From an uncultured delta proteobacterium (GTDB taxonomy: Bacteria > Myxococcota > Myxococcia > Myxococcales > Myxococcaceae): a DNA stretch of 64,000 nt. Below, one piece after another: positions 33,773-42,318 of this stretch. Each line of letters opens with the position of its first letter. The stretch's first letter is position 1. Where the stretch lies: the NCBI GenBank assembly GCA_963796055.1, contig CAWCKH010000004.1:2496001-2560000 (forward strand). Reading direction: 5' to 3'. The notes beneath the pieces were generated by a model. It searched no databases. It was not told where the DNA came from and saw nothing but the letters and a program-made list of their open reading frames with translations. Both the position numbers and the translations under genes were made by a program.

Positions 33773-34915
33773 ATGCGCTTCGACACCCTCGCCATCCACG
33801 CCGGCCAGGAGCCGGACCCGACCACCGGCGCGATCATGACGCCGGTCTATCTCTCGTCGACCTACGTGCAGGCCGGTCCCGGCGAGCACAAGGGCTACGA
33901 ATACAGCCGTACCAGGAACCCCACCCGCACCGCGCTCGAGGCCTGCCTCGCGGCGTTGGAAGGTGCACGGTTCGGCGCGGCCTTCGCCTCGGGCTGCGCG
34001 GCCACCGACGCTCTGATCCACCTGCTCGACAGCGGAGACCACGTCGTCTGCTCGGACGACGTCTACGGCGGCACCTTCCGGCTCTTCGACAAGGTGTTCA
34101 AGCGGCTGGGTCTGTCCTTCAGCTTCGTGGACCTGTCGAAGCCCGGGACCCTCGAGGCGGCGCTCACCCCCCGGACGAGGATGGTGTGGCTGGAGACGCC
34201 CACCAACCCGACCTTGAAGCTGGTGGACCTCGCCCGGTGCGCCGAGACCTGCCGGGCCCGGAAGATCGTCACCGTCTGCGACAACACCTTCCTCTCGCCG
34301 TACTTCCAGCGCCCGCTCGAGCACGGCATCGACGTGGTGGTGCACTCCACCACCAAGTACATCAACGGGCACAGCGACACGGTGGGCGGCTTCATCGCCA
34401 CCAGCAACGAGGAGCTCGCCCAGCGCATCTACTTCCTCCAGAACGCGGTGGGCGGTGTGCCCTCGGCGATGGACAGCTTTCTCGTCCTGCGGGGGGTGAA
34501 GACGCTCGGCGTCCGGATGGCGCGCCACGAGCAGAACGCGATGAAGGTCGCCGAGTTCCTGATGCAGCACCCCAAGGCCGGCCACGTCGTCTACCCGGGC
34601 CTGCCGAGCCACCCGCAGCACGCGCTCGCCCGGAAGCAGATGAAGGGCTTCGGCGGGATGCTCACCTTCGAGATCCAGGGCGGTCTTCCGGCGGCAAGGA
34701 AGTTCCTCAAGGCGACCAAGGTCTTCGCCTGCGCCGAGTCGCTCGGCGGCGTGGAGAGCCTCATCGAGCATCCGGCGATCATGACCCACGCCTCGGTGCC
34801 TCCCGAGACCCGTGCGGCGCTGGGCATCTCCGACGGGTTCATCCGCCTCTCGGTGGGCATCGAGGACGTCGCGGACCTGATCGAGGACCTGTCCCAGGCG
34901 TTCGCCCAGGCCTGA
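33773..34915 (+). CDS. metB: Cystathionine gamma-lyase/synthase (PLP)
   Basis: FDTLAIHAGQEPD, YSRTRNPTR, ETPTNP, HSTTKYINGHSD, ESLGGVESL. Confidence 0.88.
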   Translation: MRFDTLAIHAGQEPDPTTGAIMTPVYLSSTYVQAGPGEHKGYEYSRTRNPTRTALEACLAALEGARFGAAFASGCAATDALIHLLDSGDHVVCSDDVYGGTFRLFDKVFKRLGLSFSFVDLSKPGTLEAALTPRTRMVWLETPTNPTLKLVDLARCAETCRARKIVTVCDNTFLSPYFQRPLEHGIDVVVHSTTKYINGHSDTVGGFIATSNEELAQRIYFLQNAVGGVPSAMDSFLVLRGVKTLGVRMARHEQNAMKVAEFLMQHPKAGHVVYPGLPSHPQHALARKQMKGFGGMLTFEIQGGLPAARKFLKATKVFACAESLGGVESLIEHPAIMTHASVPPETRAALGISDGFIRLSVGIEDVADLIEDLSQAFAQA

Positions 34916-34986
34916 TTCCAGGAACTTCCGCCGGCGACCCGCCGATGGCTTGCGCGGCGCCCCCCGACTGGACTACCTCTCCAGTC

Positions 34987-35073
34987 GTGGTCGTCCAGCT
35001 CCATCACCATGCGCACCATCCGCACGGGCCCGTCGGGTCGGTGCACGCGCATGGCGGTGTGTCCTTGAGCTGA
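34987..35073 (+). CDS. Putative his operon leader peptide (28 aa, 8 His)
   Basis: GTG-VVQLHHHAHHPHGPVGSVHAHGGVSLS*; ends 101 nt before hisG; an alternative in-frame ATG lies at 34945. Confidence 0.75.
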   Translation: MVVQLHHHAHHPHGPVGSVHAHGGVSLS

Positions 35074-35105
35074 CCCGCCCCCGCTGACACCGAAAGTTCC
35101 CGACC

Positions 35106-35160
35106 GGGCCCTCCAGGGCGCCGCATCCTTGCGGCGTGCCTCGAGGGCCCACTTCCCGTT
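35106..35160 (+). terminator. Attenuator (3:4) hairpin upstream of hisG
   Basis: GGGCCCTC(35106-13)/GAGGGCCC(35143-50) enclose GCGCCGCA-TCCT-TGCGGCGT; only a weak pyrimidine tail follows. Confidence 0.55.
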
Positions 35161-35174
35161 TCTGGAGGCCGTTC

Positions 35175-36032
35175 ATGCTGCGCATCGCACTACCGAACAA
35201 GGGCAGGCTGGCCGAGGACGTCCGAGGCGTCTTCGCCGACGCGGGCCTGGAGATCCGCGCCCGCGGCGAGCGGGCCCTCACCGCGTCCCTGGGAGGCGAG
35301 TTCGAGGCCATCTTCGTCCGGAGCCAGGACATCCCCGAGCTGGTCTCCGATGGCGTGGCCGACGCCGGCGTCACCGGGTGGGACCTGGTCTGCGAGACCG
35401 GCAAGCCCGTGGACGTCCGGCTGGATCTCGAGTTCGGCCGGTGCCGGCTGGTGCTCGCCGCGCGCGAGGACTCGGGCATCGAGCGCCCGGAGCAGCTTCC
35501 GGCCGGCTCCCGGGCGGCGACGGTCTTTCCCCGGCTCGCCCGGTCCTTCTTCGCCGAGAAGGGGCTCGCGGTGGAGGTGGTTCCCGTCTCCGGCGCGGCG
35601 GAGGTCGCGCCTCACCTCGGCATCGCCGACGTGGTGATCGACCTGACGACCACCGGAAGCACGCTCCGCACCAACGGGCTCAAGGAGGTCTGCACCCTCC
35701 TCGAGTCCAGCGCGCGGCTCATCGCCCGGCCTGGGCTGGGGCCCGACCGGACACGGGCCCTGTGCGAGCTCGAGGACGCGCTCGGCTCGGTGCTCCGGGC
35801 GCGTGGCAAGCGCTACCTCATGGCCAACGTGCCGCGGGCGAAGCTGGAGGCGGTCCGCGAGGTGCTCCCCGGGCTCAGCGGGCCCACCGTCATCGAGCTG
35901 TACGGCGCCGGTCCGCTGGTCGCCGTGCACGCGGTGGTGGCCGAGGCCTCGCTCTACCGGACGGTGGCCGCGCTGAAGGCACTCGGCGCCGAGGGCATCC
36001 TGGTCACCCGCATCGAGAGGCTCCTGCCATGA
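35175..36032 (+). CDS. hisG: ATP phosphoribosyltransferase (long form)
   Basis: MLRIALPNKGRL, DLTTTGSTLRTNGL, C-terminal regulatory domain LPGLSGPTV. Confidence 0.96.
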   Translation: MLRIALPNKGRLAEDVRGVFADAGLEIRARGERALTASLGGEFEAIFVRSQDIPELVSDGVADAGVTGWDLVCETGKPVDVRLDLEFGRCRLVLAAREDSGIERPEQLPAGSRAATVFPRLARSFFAEKGLAVEVVPVSGAAEVAPHLGIADVVIDLTTTGSTLRTNGLKEVCTLLESSARLIARPGLGPDRTRALCELEDALGSVLRARGKRYLMANVPRAKLEAVREVLPGLSGPTVIELYGAGPLVAVHAVVAEASLYRTVAALKALGAEGILVTRIERLLP

Positions 36033-37333
36033 CCGCGCCGGTGCGCTGGACCGGCTCGCTGTCCGCGCTCGGCCCGGAGGCGTTGCGCGCCCTGCTCTCG
36101 CGCGGCCAGGCCGACTCGGGGGCGCGGGAGCTGCGGGAGGAGGTCGCCGAGCTGGTGGCCGAGGTGAGGACGCGCGGCGATGCGGCCCTGCGAGACTTCG
36201 CGCGCCGGTTCGACCGCGTCATCCTGAGCACGCTGGAGGTGCCGCGGGAGACGGTGCGCGCCGCGCTGGACCGCCAGCCGCCGGCGCTGCGCCGGACCAT
36301 GGAGCGGTCGGCCCGGAACGTGGCCCGCGTCCACTCCGCGTTCCGTCCGCAGGCGAGCCGGGTGGAGGTCGAGCCCGGGGTCGTCGTGGAGCGGCGCCCC
36401 GATCCGCTGGGCCGCGTTGGTGTCTACGCGCCGGGCGGGCGTGCCGCGTACCCGAGCAGCGTCCTCATGGGCGCGGTGCCGGCGCGGGTGGCCGGCGTGC
36501 GGGAGGTGGTCCTCTGCTCGCCGCCGGGGCCGGAAGGCCTTCCCTCCGACGTGGTGCTCGCCGCGGCCGCAGTGGCCGAGGTGGACCGGGTGTTCGCGCT
36601 CGGCGGCGCCGGCGCCATCGCCGCGCTGGCGTACGGGACGGAGTCGGTGCCGGCCGTGGACCGCATCGTCGGCCCGGGCAACGCCTGGGTCGCGGAGGCG
36701 AAGCTCCAGATCTCCTCGCGCGTTCCCATCGACTCCCCGGCCGGGCCCTCCGAGCTGCTGGTCCTGCTCGACGGCACCTCGGACGTGGAGGCGGTGGCCC
36801 GCGAGCTGCTCGCCCAGGCCGAGCACGACCCCGAGGCGGCGGTGGTGGCGGTGGCCCTCGACGACGCGACCGCGCGGCGCCTGCTCGAGCGCGTGGCGGC
36901 GCTGGTGCCCACGGCAGCGCGGGCGGACATCATCCGCGCGGCGCTCGCCAGCCGCGGGGCGGTGGTGGTGGCGCGCACGCAGAAGGAGGCGGTCGACTTC
37001 GCCGAGCGGTGGGCCCCCGAGCACCTCATGGTGGCCGTCAAGGGGGCGCCCGAGCTCGCCCGCCGGGTGCGCAGCGCGGGGACCATCTTCGTCGGCACCT
37101 CCAGCTCGGGCGCCTTCGGTGACTACCTCACCGGCGCCAACCACGTGCTCCCCACCGCCGGAGCGGCGCGGGCCTGGTCGGGCCTGTCCACCCTGGACTT
37201 CGTGCGCTGGACCACCGTCCAGACGGTTTCGCGCGAGGGCGCGGCCGGGCTGTCCGCCGACACCGACGTGTTCGCCACCGCCGAGGGGCTGCACGCGCAC
37301 GCCGCCGCTGCCCGGGCCTGGAGCGCGCCGTGA
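36029..37333 (+). CDS. hisD: Histidinol dehydrogenase
   Basis: YAPGG...YPSSVLM, GPGNAWV, PAGPSE, QAEHD, APEHL, GDYLTGANHVLPT. Confidence 0.97.
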   Translation: MTAPVRWTGSLSALGPEALRALLSRGQADSGARELREEVAELVAEVRTRGDAALRDFARRFDRVILSTLEVPRETVRAALDRQPPALRRTMERSARNVARVHSAFRPQASRVEVEPGVVVERRPDPLGRVGVYAPGGRAAYPSSVLMGAVPARVAGVREVVLCSPPGPEGLPSDVVLAAAAVAEVDRVFALGGAGAIAALAYGTESVPAVDRIVGPGNAWVAEAKLQISSRVPIDSPAGPSELLVLLDGTSDVEAVARELLAQAEHDPEAAVVAVALDDATARRLLERVAALVPTAARADIIRAALASRGAVVVARTQKEAVDFAERWAPEHLMVAVKGAPELARRVRSAGTIFVGTSSSGAFGDYLTGANHVLPTAGAARAWSGLSTLDFVRWTTVQTVSREGAAGLSADTDVFATAEGLHAHAAAARAWSAP

Positions 37334-38373
37334 GCCCGGCCCGCCCCCGGCCGGTCCTGGCCACCGTGCCACTGTACGCGCCGGACCCGAGCCCGGTGGA
37401 GCTCGACCTCAGCGACAACGTGAACCTGTGGGGCGTGCCGCCCGCCGCGGAACGGGCGCTCCGGGACCCGCTCGCCGCCCACCCCAGCGTCTATCCCCAC
37501 TCGGATCCGGTGGAGCTCCGCGAGGCGCTGGCCCGCTACGCAGGGGTGAGCCCGGCGCAGGTCATCACCGGCTGCGGCTCGGACGACGTCATCGACGGCG
37601 CGCTCCGGGCCTTCGCCGCGCCCGGCGAGAAGGTGGCCTACTCGGCCCCGAGCTTCTCGATGCTGGTCAACTTCACCCGGGTGAACGGGCTGGAGCCCGC
37701 GCCCGTTCCGTTCCGCACCGGGGGGGACATCGACCCGGACACGCTCCTCGCCGAGCGCGCGGCCATCACCTACGTCTGCAGCCCCAACAACCCCACCGGG
37801 GCCGGCGCCTCTCCCGCGGCGATCGAGCGGGTCGTCTCCCGCGCCGAGGGGCTGGTGCTGGTCGACGAGGCATACGGCGAGTACGCAGGGCAGACCGCCG
37901 TCCCGCTTCTCGGCAGGGCCCCGCAGCTGCTCGTCACCCGCACGCTGTCCAAGGCGTTCGGCCTCGCCGGCCTCCGCGTCGGGTACGGTCTGGCCGCGCC
38001 GGAGGTGGTGCAGGTGCTGGAGAAGGTCCGGGGTCCCTACAAGGTGAACGCCCTCGGCGAGCGGGTGGCGCTGGCCGCGCTCCGCGAGGACCTCGGCTGG
38101 GTGCGTCGCCACGTCGAGGAGGCGCTGGGAATCCGTGACCGGCTCCGCACCGCGCTCGAGGCGGTCGGCCTTCGCCCGCTGCCGTCGGCGGCGAACTTCC
38201 TCTGCGTCCCGGTGCCCGACTCGGCGGCGCTGGGGAAGGCGCTGCTCTGCCGCGGCATCAAGGTCCGGGTGCTCCGCGCGCTGCCCGGGGTCGGCGACGC
38301 GATCCGCATGGGCGTGGGACCGTGGGAGCAGATGGAGCGGCTGCTGAGCGCGCTGCGCGAGGTGCTGCGGTGA
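37330..38373 (+). CDS. hisC: Histidinol-phosphate aminotransferase
   Basis: GSDDVI, CSPNNPTG, VDEAY, RTLSKAFGLAGLRVGY. Confidence 0.95.
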   Translation: MSPARPRPVLATVPLYAPDPSPVELDLSDNVNLWGVPPAAERALRDPLAAHPSVYPHSDPVELREALARYAGVSPAQVITGCGSDDVIDGALRAFAAPGEKVAYSAPSFSMLVNFTRVNGLEPAPVPFRTGGDIDPDTLLAERAAITYVCSPNNPTGAGASPAAIERVVSRAEGLVLVDEAYGEYAGQTAVPLLGRAPQLLVTRTLSKAFGLAGLRVGYGLAAPEVVQVLEKVRGPYKVNALGERVALAALREDLGWVRRHVEEALGIRDRLRTALEAVGLRPLPSAANFLCVPVPDSAALGKALLCRGIKVRVLRALPGVGDAIRMGVGPWEQMERLLSALREVLR

Positions 38374-38963
38374 GGGTGGCGGTCCTCGACACCCGGGTGG
38401 GGAACGTCCACTCCCTGCTCAAGGCGCTGACTGCAGCAGGGGGAGCGCCGCGCCTCGAGTCGCGTCCGGAGGCCTGCCTGGACGCCCCCCTGCTGGTCCT
38501 CCCGGGCGTCGGGGCATACCCGGCCGCCACCACCCTCTTCCGGGAAGCCCGGCAGGCGGTCCGCGAACGCCTGCTCGGGGGGGCTCCTTGCCTGGGCATC
38601 TGCCTCGGGATGCAGCTGCTGCTGGACGACAGCGAGGAGGGCCCCGGGGCCGGGCTGGGGGTCGTTCCAGGCCGGGTGGTGAGACTGGAGGCTCCCCGCG
38701 TCCCTCACATGGGATGGAACCAGCTCGAGGGGGACGACCCCCTCCTGACCCGTTCCGGCCTCCGGACGGCCTACTACGCCCACAGCTTCGTCTGCCGACC
38801 AGTGAATCCTGAGGCAGTCCGGGCCACGACGGAGCACGCAGGCGTCAGGTTTCCGGCGATGATTCGGTCCAGGGGGATGGTGGGCGTGCAGTTCCACCCC
38901 GAGAAGAGCGGTGCACCCGGTCTGGCCTTCCTGGCCGCGGTGCTCGAGGAGGTCGGCACATGA
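38370..38963 (+). CDS. hisH: Imidazole glycerol phosphate synthase glutaminase subunit
   Basis: LPGVGA, GICLGMQ, PHMGWN, QFHPEKS. Confidence 0.95.
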   Translation: MRVAVLDTRVGNVHSLLKALTAAGGAPRLESRPEACLDAPLLVLPGVGAYPAATTLFREARQAVRERLLGGAPCLGICLGMQLLLDDSEEGPGAGLGVVPGRVVRLEAPRVPHMGWNQLEGDDPLLTRSGLRTAYYAHSFVCRPVNPEAVRATTEHAGVRFPAMIRSRGMVGVQFHPEKSGAPGLAFLAAVLEEVGT

Positions 38964-39670
38964 GGGTCTTTCCGGCGATCGACCTGCGCGGGGGCGCCTG
39001 CGTCCAGTGGGTGGGCGGCGTGCCCGATGCGGAGAAGATCCGCCTCCCCGACCCGGTGGAGGTGGCGAACCGCTGGAAGGCGGCGGGATTCAAGGTGCTT
39101 CACCTGGTGGACCTCGACGCCGCCCTGGGCACCGGCTCGAACGCCTCGGTCATCGAGGCCATCCTCGATGCCACCGGGCTCGAGGCCGAGGTGGGGGGCG
39201 GCGTGCGCGACGAGGAGGGGATCCAGCGCGTGCTCGACCTCGGCGCCAACCGGGTCATCGTGGGCACCCGGGCGCTCGAGGACCCCCGCTGGCTCGAGGA
39301 GGTGGCCTTCAAGTTCCCGGGGAGGCTGGTGCTCGCCGCCGACGCGCGCGGGCGGCAGGTGGTGACCCGGGGCTGGACCCGTACCCTGACCCAGGACGTG
39401 GGGGCGCTGATCGCCGGGGTGGATGCCCTGCCGCTGGCTGCGGTGATGGTCACCGCGGTGCACGTCGAGGGCCTGGAGGGCGGCACGGATCTGAAATTGA
39501 TGTCCGAGCTGGTGGAGACCACCAGCCATCCGCTCCTGGCCTCGGGCGGCATCGCCTCGATGGACGAGCTGCGCAAGCTGGCCGGCGCCGGGGTGGCCGG
39601 GGCCATCCTGGGGATGGCGCTCTACACCGGGAAGATCGACGCCAGGGCCGCGGCGAAAGAGTTCCCGTGA
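38960..39670 (+). CDS. hisA: ProFAR isomerase
   Basis: FPAIDLRGG, LHLVDLD, VGGGVR, ASGGI. Confidence 0.95.
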   Translation: MRVFPAIDLRGGACVQWVGGVPDAEKIRLPDPVEVANRWKAAGFKVLHLVDLDAALGTGSNASVIEAILDATGLEAEVGGGVRDEEGIQRVLDLGANRVIVGTRALEDPRWLEEVAFKFPGRLVLAADARGRQVVTRGWTRTLTQDVGALIAGVDALPLAAVMVTAVHVEGLEGGTDLKLMSELVETTSHPLLASGGIASMDELRKLAGAGVAGAILGMALYTGKIDARAAAKEFP

Positions 39671-40206
39671 CCGTCCGGCTGGTGCGAGAGACGAAGGAAT
39701 CCCGGGTCGAGGTGGAGATCGGCCCGGGGACGGATCCGGCGCGGATCGAGACCGGGAAGCCGTTCTTCGACCACATGCTCTTTACGTTCGCCAGGTACGC
39801 GGGCCTGAGCCTGGGGGTGCGCGCCCGGGGCGACCTGACGCACCACCTGATGGAGGACGTGGCGATCACCGTGGGCCTGGCGTTCCGGAGGATGGTTCCG
39901 GCGACCGCAGCCCGCTTCGGCGAGCGTACCGTGCCGATGGACGATGCGCTGGTGCAGGCAGCGGTGGACCTGGGCGGGCGCTCCTACTACCGGGGCAAGC
40001 TCCCCAACGCGCTCTACGAGCACTGGATGCGCAGCTTCGCCGAGAACGCCGGGGCCACGCTGCACCTGCGCGTACTGCGCGGCCGCAACCGCCACCACGT
40101 CGTCGAGTGCGCCTTCAAGGCGCTGGGCCTGGCGATCCGCGACGCGCTGGCCGAGGGCGGCTCGGTGTTCAGCCTCAAGGGCTCGGTGAAGGTCACGGAG
40201 GGCTGA
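39667..40206 (+). CDS. hisB: Imidazoleglycerol-phosphate dehydratase (monofunctional, short)
   Basis: RETKES, FFDHML, HHLMED, PMDDA, NRHHVVECAFKA, KGSV. Confidence 0.93.
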   Translation: MTVRLVRETKESRVEVEIGPGTDPARIETGKPFFDHMLFTFARYAGLSLGVRARGDLTHHLMEDVAITVGLAFRRMVPATAARFGERTVPMDDALVQAAVDLGGRSYYRGKLPNALYEHWMRSFAENAGATLHLRVLRGRNRHHVVECAFKALGLAIRDALAEGGSVFSLKGSVKVTEG

Positions 40207-40967
40207 TGCTGGCGCCGCGCATCGTGGCCTGCCTCGACGTCACCGCGGGCCGGGTGGTGAAGGGGACGAAGTTCGTCGACCTCCGCGACCAGGGAGACCC
40301 GGTGGAGCTGGCCGAGGCCTACGGGCGGGACGGGGCGGACGAGGTCACGTTCCTCGACATCTCGGCCACGCCCGAGCAGCGGGCGCCGCTGCTGGACGTG
40401 GTCCGGCGTACCGCGGAGCGGCTCTTCGTCCCCCTGACGGTGGGTGGCGGGATGCGCGCGGCCGAGGACGTGGAGCGGGCCCTGCGGGCGGGGGCGGACA
40501 AGGTGGCGCTCAACTCGGCGCCGGTGCGTGCGCCGGAGCTGTTCTCCGAGTGCGCCCGCCGCTTCGGGGCCCAGTGTGTGGTGGCGAGCATCGATGCGCG
40601 GCGCTCGGGAGACCGGTGGCAGGTGGTGGTCGGCGGGGGGCGGCACGCCGTGGATCTGGATGCCGTGGAGTGGGCGCGCGAGGCCGAGCGGCGGGGGGCG
40701 GGGGAGATCCTCCTCACCAGCATCGACCGCGACGGGGCCCGGACCGGGTACGACCTCGCGCTGACCCGGGCGGTTGTCAGCGCGGTGAAGGTGCCGGTGG
40801 TGGCCTCGGGCGGGGCGGGGGAGGCGGAGCACCTCCGGGCCGTGCTCCAGGACGCCGGGGCGGATGCGGCGCTGGTGGCGGGAATCCTTCATGACGGCAC
40901 GACCACGGTCCGGGCGCTGAAGCAGGCGCTCTCCCGGGCCGGGGTGCCGGTGCGTGGCGAGGCGTGA
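40206..40967 (+). CDS. hisF: Imidazole glycerol phosphate synthase cyclase subunit
   Basis: CLDV...VVKG, GDPVELA, LTVGGG, LTSIDRDG, ASGGAG. Confidence 0.97.
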   Translation: MLAPRIVACLDVTAGRVVKGTKFVDLRDQGDPVELAEAYGRDGADEVTFLDISATPEQRAPLLDVVRRTAERLFVPLTVGGGMRAAEDVERALRAGADKVALNSAPVRAPELFSECARRFGAQCVVASIDARRSGDRWQVVVGGGRHAVDLDAVEWAREAERRGAGEILLTSIDRDGARTGYDLALTRAVVSAVKVPVVASGGAGEAEHLRAVLQDAGADAALVAGILHDGTTTVRALKQALSRAGVPVRGEA

Positions 40968-41737
40968 TGAGCGAGGTACGGTCGTGGATGGAGGCGGCGG
41001 AGGCGGTGGCCCGGGTGGCGGGAGAGGTGGCGCTGCGCCACTACCACCGAGGGGTCACGGTGGAGACCAAGGGCGACGGGACTCCGGTCTCGGTGGCGGA
41101 CCGGGAGGCGGAGGAGGCCGCTCGCCGCTGGCTGGAGAAGCGCTGCCCCGAGGACGGCATCCTCGGCGAGGAGCTGGGGACCACCCGGCCCGAGGCCCGA
41201 CGCCGGTGGATCCTCGACCCGATCGACGGGACGAAGACCTTCGTCCGCCGGGTGCCACTGTGGGGGACGCTGGTGGCGCTCGCCGAGGGCGAGACGGTGC
41301 TCGCCGGAGCGGCGTACTTTCCCGCGGTGGACGAGCTGGTCGTCGCCGCCCAGGGCGGGGGCTGCTTCTGGAATGGCAAGCCGGCGCGCGTCTCGAGCGT
41401 GTCGCGGCTGTCCGAGGCGGTGGTGCTGACCACCGACGCGCGGATGGGCACAGCGGAGCAAGTGCGCGCCCTCGACGGGCTCTGCGCCCGGGCGGGGCTC
41501 GTCCGGACCTGGGGGGACTGCTACGGCTATCTGCTCATCGCCACCGGACGCGCAGAGGCGATGGCCGATGCGCTGATGGCGCCGTGGGATGCGGCGGCGC
41601 TGCAGCCGATCATCGAGGAGGCCGGCGGAGTGTTCACCGACTGGAGCGGCCGGCGCACGGCGTTCGGAGGCAACGCGGTGGCGAGCAACGCGGCGCTGGC
41701 GGCCGAGGTGCGCGCGGCGCTCGGAGGCCCGGGATGA
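40967..41737 (+). CDS. hisN: Histidinol-phosphatase, inositol-monophosphatase family
   Basis: TPVSVADR, GEE, WILDPIDGTKTF, WGDCYGY, WDAAA; located inside the his operon. Confidence 0.9.
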   Translation: MSEVRSWMEAAEAVARVAGEVALRHYHRGVTVETKGDGTPVSVADREAEEAARRWLEKRCPEDGILGEELGTTRPEARRRWILDPIDGTKTFVRRVPLWGTLVALAEGETVLAGAAYFPAVDELVVAAQGGGCFWNGKPARVSSVSRLSEAVVLTTDARMGTAEQVRALDGLCARAGLVRTWGDCYGYLLIATGRAEAMADALMAPWDAAALQPIIEEAGGVFTDWSGRRTAFGGNAVASNAALAAEVRAALGGPG

Positions 41738-42318
41738 CCCTCGACTTCGAGAAGGGCGGCGGCCGGGTCACGGTGGTGACGCGCGACGCGCGGACCGGTG
41801 CGGTGCTGATGGTGGCCCACGCCGACCGCGAGGCCATCGCCCGGACCGAGGCGACGGGCGAGATGCACTACACCTCGCGGACCCGGGGGCTGTGGCGGAA
41901 GGGCGAGACCAGCGGGAACGTGCAGAAGGTGGTGCGGCTCACGGCGGACTGCGACTCGGACGCGGTGCTCGCCGATGTGATTTCCGCGGGACCCGCCTGT
42001 CACAACGGAACGGTGTCGTGCTTTCGCGAGCCGGGCGAGGCCTCGGGTGCGTTCGCGCGGCTCGACGCGGTGGTGCGCTCCAGGGCGGAGTCGGGCGACG
42101 AGAAGAGCTACACCCGGAAGCTGCTCGTGGACCGGAATCTTCGCCTCAAGAAGCTGGGGGAGGAGATGGCCGAGCTGGTGACTGCCTGTGCCGATGGAGA
42201 TCGTGAGCGCGCCACGGAGGAGGCGGCGGACGTCGTCTACCACCTCACCGTGGCGCTTCGGGCGCTCGGCCTCGGTCTCGGCGAAGTCGCGACGGCGCTC
42301 GATCGACGCGCCCGCTGA
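41734..42318 (+). CDS. hisIE: Bifunctional PR-AMP cyclohydrolase / PR-ATP pyrophosphatase
   Basis: LWRKGETSGN, DCDSD, PACHNG...CF, SYT, KKLGEE, EAADVVYH. Confidence 0.95.
   Translation: MTLDFEKGGGRVTVVTRDARTGAVLMVAHADREAIARTEATGEMHYTSRTRGLWRKGETSGNVQKVVRLTADCDSDAVLADVISAGPACHNGTVSCFREPGEASGAFARLDAVVRSRAESGDEKSYTRKLLVDRNLRLKKLGEEMAELVTACADGDRERATEEAADVVYHLTVALRALGLGLGEVATALDRRAR

Follow-up and report, generated by a model that had tools for sequence, protein, structure and literature searches.

The translated leader of the enterobacterial hisL attenuator lies behind a 5′ untranslated region. In two respects hisL (RF00514, His_leader) resembles the locus analyzed here: it has a run of His codons in a short ORF before long-form hisG, and it follows a protector/antiterminator/terminator logic, as outlined in PMC9413887. 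It differs in that the start of the present family is predicted to be leaderless or near-leaderless, and in that the U-tract is eroded in the genus of our locus. Predicted His leaders of Firmicutes and Bacteroidetes, as described in PMC9413887 and PMC2965389, likewise fall outside RF00514 and place a terminator and an antiterminator ahead of his genes; they belong to other phyla, and we liken them to the present family by description. Mycobacterial leaderless poly-Cys short ORFs (10.1101/834739) are also reported to act as amino-acid sensors at an operon head, but they sense Cys and their demonstrated output is masking of a Shine-Dalgarno (SD) sequence, which folding disfavors at our locus. 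For Myxococcus xanthus DK1622, row 9021 of supplementary Table S8 of Naville and Gautheret (2010; PMC2965389) labels the region before hisG "His_peptide_leader" and puts a terminator 36 nt ahead of that gene. Neither a structure nor a start site is given in the row, and the searched passages of the main text do not mention it. A first-pass annotation of our locus had known of no characterized his attenuator in Myxococcota. This stands for experiments, none being found for myxobacteria or Gemmatimonadota in a literature search that had most subscription journals outside its range, but not for predictions, the M. xanthus orthologue having been predicted in 2010. Lopatovskaya et al. 2010 reportedly covers delta-proteobacteria and may list a hisG leader element.

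The leader lies in a window (the whole stretch of DNA analyzed, 64,000 nt) from an uncultured member of the Myxococcaceae. It belongs to the same family as the M. xanthus leader, with which it has the operon head, the His run and the antiterminator core in common; the terminator of M. xanthus is short and canonical, with 6 U, whereas the window has a rebuilt 45-nt hairpin followed by 2 U. The mechanism class is old and the M. xanthus copy has already been predicted; what is peculiar to the window's genus is the rebuilt hairpin and the eroded U-tract. Searches with RF00514 and the rest of Rfam gave no match at the window locus (to E 10) or at the M. xanthus (L035) and Gemmatimonadaceae (L032) loci (to E 1).

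The short ORF, promoter motif, helices, hisG and SD sequence named by the first-pass annotation were all recovered in place (Table 1). The hisG gene starts with the ATG at 35175, encodes the long form with a C-terminal domain and is the only hisG of the genome; hisC, hisA, hisB and hisF were named by their best NCBIfam hits, some of them slightly under the cut-off. The upstream neighbor, a member of the cystathionine gamma-synthase family, is encoded on the same strand and ends at 34915, and read-through from it into the leader is possible. ARAGORN found three tRNA-His(GUG) genes within 15 kb (G000:C4:16390-31621 (-)) as well as nine clustered tRNA genes within 2.5 kb (C4:3118970-3121462 (+)); some tRNA genes in these clusters may be fragments from integrations.

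Table 1. Elements of the his leader and operon, in window coordinates
Feature	Position	Strand	Remarks
Predicted sigma-A-type promoter	34950..34979	+	-35 TTGCGC at 34950-55, 18-nt spacer, -10 TACCTC at 34974-79
Leader ORF	34987..35073	+	28 codons; GTG start at 34987, no SD; TGA at 35071-73
Protector helix 1:2	35007..35054	+	35007-14 with 35047-54; closes around an inner hairpin in which segment 2 lies
Antiterminator domain 2:3	35026..35111	+	35026-37 with 35099-111; the inner helices extend across the stop codon and incorporate the C-rich spacer
C-rich spacer	35074..35105	+	17 C and 6 G in 32 nt; mostly unpaired once 1:2 and 3:4 form
Hairpin 3:4	35106..35150	+	genus-specific, terminator-like; 45 nt, 19 bp
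Eroded U-tract	35151..35163	+	2 U in first 8 nt; distal CGUUU kept
hisG Shine-Dalgarno, GGAGG	35164..35168	+	
his operon, hisG(long form)-hisD-hisC-hisH-hisA-hisB-hisF-hisN-hisIE	35175..42318	+	abutting genes; NCBIfam, ORFs

The leader ORF has His at codons 6, 7, 8, 10, 11 and 13 (six His in eight codons), which are predicted to be the sensor, and again at codons 20 and 22. We read the latter two as incidental, arising from the 3′ strand of helix 1:2; they are mostly missing in Gemmatimonadota leaders. The peptide had no match in Pfam or NCBIfam. Across the family it varies from 17 to 32 aa and is conserved only in the His run and a short GP motif. Runs of six His in eight codons occur at 16 places across the six frames of the genome, and a short ORF with at least five His in eight codons was present in 1 of 1918 gene-upstream regions (genes as called by our own script), namely as the leader before hisG. 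Within the genus, 37 of the 79 His codons of the cluster are CAU, compared with 1949 of 14893 in the genes of this genome.

A motif consisting of TTG, a gap of 17 or 18 nt and TA, searched for blind to reading frame, was present at 79 of 87 leader loci. At all 79, the first ATG or GTG lying 4-11 nt past the hexamer shares its reading frame with the His run, and the distance from start codon to His run varies between 4 and 10 codons. The motif ends 5-10 nt before the start (7 nt from the -10 hexamer to the GTG in the window), the -35 element is placed 35-39 nt ahead of the start codon, and only 2 of the chosen starts have an SD-like word in front of them. Myxococcaceae almost always use GTG as the start codon, and Gemmatimonadota almost always ATG. 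Because the first start behind the promoter motif is in frame at every one of these loci, the pattern points to leaderless or near-leaderless translation; promoter-start gaps of 9-10 nt in some copies would imply a 5′ UTR of a few bases. Most relatives have TTGACG at -35. The -10 element has the form TANNNT in Gemmatimonadota and lacks the last T in Myxococcaceae, and for this reason a stock sigma-70 scanner, which demands T at that position, called no promoter at the window leader. Promoter-proximal starts look common in the window's genome, since at 12-21 nt ahead of start codons TA is some two to three times as frequent as in the background. A leaderless mRNA has been proposed for the myxobacterial gene pexR (PMC12754779).

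As to start-site data, the supplements of PMC8844925 hold no row for MXAN_4230, and those of PMC11980068 hold expression rows only. We examined 6 of 23 listed RNA runs for coverage at the M. xanthus leader; contig-based runs cannot reveal transcript ends, and the one raw-read run, at 40-80x on both strands, was flat, with no terminator step and no piled-up starts or ends, and hence uninformative.

The first-pass annotation had proposed looking for His-rich short ORFs upstream of hisG across Myxococcota. Such an ORF (at least four His in ten codons, ending before hisG) was present at 113 of 116 long-form loci of Myxococcaceae and Gemmatimonadota, the window included, and at 0 of 18 divergent hisG loci of other Myxococcales; the leader loci are kin and not independent, and the totals are pooled ones, less 10 identical duplicates and 7 loci with fewer than 200 nt upstream. 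One of the three exceptions, L044, has a 3-His leader and all the parts, and the other two, L048 and L138, are without a leader. In these two, both long-form hisG loci of Myxococcaceae, a promoter-like motif lies close before hisG in place of the leader. Wider upstream scans of the divergent loci, where several of the genes are operon-internal, yielded no convincing short His-rich ORF.

A covariance model built from 14 leaders of the window's clade matched 44 of 74 long-form loci at the leader (E <= 0.01) and aligned with the M. xanthus leader (strain AM003, L035) over its full length at E 1.8e-10. It had a single match in the window's own genome, and none of 21 divergent loci fell below E 0.3. 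A degenerate His pattern, tried as a marker, proved too loose, matching 236 of 301 genomes, and was rejected. Because the leader ORF and the model matches are restricted to long-form hisG loci, leader and operon appear to travel together across two phyla. By HisG sequence, the genus is represented by a Myxococcaceae MAG and an uncultured deltaproteobacterial MAG, both matching at 93% identity. Among the best 80 of 149 matches, the next relatives (59-80%) come from Myxococcus, Corallococcus, Archangium, Cystobacter, Pyxidicoccus and many Gemmatimonadota, with one Eisenbacteria and one Acidobacteriota record. In a FastTree phylogeny of 120 sequences retained after thinning, Myxococcaceae HisG nested among Gemmatimonadota with weak support; a 48-taxon test allowed a single Gemmatimonadota clade (p-AU 0.50, 2000 replicates), and we therefore claim no donor lineage.

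In the relatives, the terminator is a 9-bp GC hairpin with 94.5% of cells paired and double changes at 4 of 9 pairs (57 sequences), a level reached in 0 of 500 shuffles. Six of the 8 nt past it are U in 13 of 13 Myxococcus-type copies, and 5-8 are U in 48 of 48 Gemmatimonadota-type copies. As an alternative, the 5′ strand of this terminator can pair with a conserved segment lying immediately downstream of the His run (87% paired). The variable pair of the antiterminator core is A-U in 46 leaders, U-A in 14, G-U in 2 and mismatched in 13; all 14 U-A cases belong to the window's clade and represent one compensating event. These counts come from an anchored table of 75 leaders, which is the valid count; alignment A2 misregisters five rows of the window's clade, and 5 of its 6 double-change cells in the antiterminator are register artefacts. 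Covarying stems, another check suggested by the first-pass annotation, were thus obtained for the terminator helix but hardly for helix 1:2, which is 88% paired across the family with weak covariation, a two-column slide scoring 0.194 versus 0.188. When the comparison is restricted to the genus plus two sister loci, 97% of cells are paired in 1:2 and in 2:3, and the helices hardly vary. Because a conserved antiterminator is joined in the relatives by a canonical terminator with a U-tract, the leader family is likely a classical His attenuator. Conservation, retention of frame and the relatives' canonical terminators together lend strong support to the earlier proposal of a ribosome-mediated His attenuator with a leaderless-type start.

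We computed folding energies of -32.7 kcal/mol for the 1:2 domain, -49.0 kcal/mol for the 2:3 domain and -38.1 kcal/mol for the 3:4 hairpin of the window. The whole leader folded with z = -2.84, and 0 of 200 shuffles were as stable. An equally strong duplex arose in 5 of 2000 base shuffles for 2:3 and in 0 of 2000 for 1:2, a test that flatters both helices, the target segments having been picked beforehand. The outer 2:3 pairing proposed earlier was retained, but its inner helix was not: in the minimum-energy domain 35038-43 pairs with 35088-93, in place of 35055-60 with 35087-92.

We conclude, with a probability of about 0.75, that the leader is a ribosome-mediated His attenuator, and that, because its U-tract is eroded, the stop in this genus probably needs Rho or NusG. 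Transcription would start at or a few nucleotides from the GTG, and the ribosome would load at the 5′ end. When charged tRNA-His is scarce, a stall at codons 6-11 would cover strand 1 and free 35026-65 for pairing with 35074-111; this pairing would sequester the base of the hairpin together with the C-rich spacer, and RNA polymerase would proceed into hisG. When His is plentiful, the ribosome would cross segment 2 to the stop codon and block the inner helices that nucleate 2:3. Helix 1:2 would then re-form behind the ribosome, 3:4 would form, the C-rich spacer would be exposed, and transcription would end near 35155-65. For copies of the Myxococcus and Gemmatimonadota types, this step would amount to ordinary intrinsic termination.

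Folding of 76 leaders with a ribosome footprint at the second His gave the antiterminator in 12/12 leaders of the genus, 2/2 of the sister loci, 13/13 of the Myxococcus type and 48-49/49 of Gemmatimonadota. In the window, the antiterminator persisted for stalls at codons 1-10 and was lost at codons 14-21; the His cluster hence sits where a stall permits it to form. Moving a bounded footprint to the stop codon did not abolish the antiterminator at equilibrium in 11-12 of the 12 leaders of the genus, in 36-40 of the 49 from Gemmatimonadota and in 2-6 of the 13 of Myxococcus type, so that the OFF state was reproduced in 7-11 of those 13. Segment 2 was more locked behind the terminating ribosome than at the His stall in 10 of 13 Myxococcus-type, 32 of 50 Gemmatimonadota and 1 of 12 genus leaders; in the other 11 genus members it was no more locked. 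When the full-length window leader was folded at equilibrium, 3:4 won in every ribosome state. Equilibrium folds take no account of kinetics or of the space that a ribosome fills within the loop. Since they keep the antiterminator at the stop codon, the OFF state in this genus would have to be argued from kinetics and steric effects.

In the window's genus, the old terminator strand persists as the antiterminator partner (35099-104), and the new 45-nt hairpin begins just past it, so placed that 2:3 overlaps the lowest 6 of the 19 pairs of 3:4. The hairpin is 96% paired in the genus and appears to be under selection, because double changes at 3 pairs keep the pairing. A terminator scan called none at the window leader. 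Behind the hairpin, the number of U in 8 nt is 2, 2, 3, 5, 5, 3, 5, 3, 5, 5, 6 and 5 in the 12 genomes of the genus; the sister genus has a shorter hairpin followed by 5 U of 8. That the genus can make use of U-tracts is indicated by its ilvB leader, where a run of five U is present in 8/8 loci. A crude scan found at least 5 U behind 2 of 285 gene-end hairpins of the window's own genome, which encodes a rho gene above the cut-off and a second, rho-like gene. This second gene (G000:C4:2732133-2733230 (-), locus L103) scores below the cut-offs of both TIGR00767 rho and the short-form Rho2 model.

Work on mycobacterial RNA polymerase reports that a U-tract is needed, with no termination in its absence even when NusA and NusG are present, and that NusG aids the enzyme at imperfect U-tracts (PMC3993855). 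For actinobacterial leaders that lack terminators, Rho-dependent attenuation has been proposed (PMC1262725). Given the eroded U-tract, the scarcity of U-tract terminators, the rho genes and these NusG and Rho precedents, our best guess for this genus is factor-assisted termination, by Rho or NusG. The C-rich spacer, whose pairing switches between the folds, would be a candidate Rho loading stretch, and attenuation would then be of the Rho-dependent, tna-like type. It is 30-38 nt long, which is short for a Rho site, and also C-rich in copies with a canonical terminator.

Some of these data could also be read as decay of the output behind an intact sensor, the hairpin then being a leaky terminator or a pause and the operon weakly regulated or near-constitutive. 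A U count that drifts from 2 to 6 of 8 over the 12 genus members, while the ilv leader keeps its five-U run in 8/8, would fit such decay, as would an antiterminator that covers little of the new hairpin, equilibrium models that show no clean switch, and the reported failure of mycobacterial RNA polymerase at sites without a U-tract even with NusA and NusG (PMC3993855). We nevertheless consider decay unlikely: the start, the His run and helices 1:2, 2:3 and 3:4 are kept in 12/12 genus members, and conservation of this kind, with 97% and 96% of cells paired and double changes in 3:4, is hardly expected of a dead switch.

A translational output, in which the His-replete fold masks the ribosome-binding site of hisG as described for mycobacterial leaderless Cys attenuators (10.1101/834739), had been raised by the first-pass annotation through a pairing of 35107-16 with the SD sequence. 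The complementarity is real, strand 3 matching the SD region in 12/12 genus members (-8 to -16 kcal/mol); the hairpin ends 19-35 nt ahead of the ATG, and a weak hairpin between tail and SD is possible (-4.3 kcal/mol). Yet masking needs strand 3, which is occupied by 3:4 in that same state, and this pairing loses to 3:4. The polarity is wrong as well: in 11/12 genus members, the binding site is predicted to be cheaper to open when 3:4 has formed than when 2:3 has. SD masking was therefore rejected as the switch, and a translational output appears quite improbable. That the ORF is no sensor at all, and encodes a metal-binding His-rich micropeptide or is a by-product of conserved RNA structure, is very improbable, for although the peptide is His-rich and its His-Ala-His codons form a palindromic helix strand, so that some His codons are structure-driven, the peptide is unconserved outside the His run and GP motif, the ORF keeps to the his operon and, in relatives, has a canonical terminator behind it, and the frame is retained in 79/79 loci.

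Other candidate leaders were seen in the genus. A GTG-initiated short ORF ending in 3-4 Cys codons (G000:C4:3434235-3434312 (+), L158) precedes a cysteine-synthase-like gene that scores below NCBIfam cut-offs and is followed by a gene that looks, by eye, like a sulfurtransferase. Together with its relatives (L179-L189), it has at least 3 Cys in 11/11 genus loci, a weak promoter-like motif just upstream and no U-tract; it resembles the mycobacterial poly-Cys leaderless attenuators and has no Rfam match. In another Myxococcales family, a short ORF with 5 Cys in 8 codons (L190, genome G032) is followed by a hairpin with a U-tract before a cysteine-synthase-like gene, and is possibly a classical Cys attenuator. 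A third short ORF (G000:C5:139476-139580 (+), L157), right after TTGACA-17-TA, contains Met codons and a C-terminal Cys cluster and lies about 215 nt before an O-acetylhomoserine sulfhydrylase gene. It is followed by a long, conserved, structured spacer, is present in 12/13 genus loci (relatives L159-L170) and is a candidate Met/Cys-sensing leader without an Rfam match. Finally, a Val/Leu/Ile-rich leader (G000:C4, minus strand, about 556081-555880, L156) that has a canonical terminator with a U-tract lies before ilvB, itself followed by genes that by eye resemble ilvN-leuA-leuC-leuD, and is conserved in 8/8 genus loci (relatives L199-L206).

The ribosome-mediated His attenuator proposed here extends His attenuation to a family that has no Rfam model and spans Myxococcaceae and Gemmatimonadota, with a leader predicted to be translated from the first bases of the transcript. 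M. xanthus offers a host for its study; starvation drives the development of this organism, and most of its his genes are reported to change in an mrpC mutant (PMC11980068). The canonical copies in close kin make a change from intrinsic to factor-assisted termination testable by part swapping. More speculatively, the attenuator may have been carried with its operon between Gemmatimonadota and Myxococcaceae and then rewired in this genus from intrinsic to Rho-dependent termination, the sensor and antiterminator being kept, a long pause hairpin taking the place of the terminator, and the switch now hiding or exposing a C-rich Rho site. We offer this as a tentative scenario; if the rewiring to Rho is true, the sister genera would show the intermediate step and provide a natural series for a change of attenuator output.
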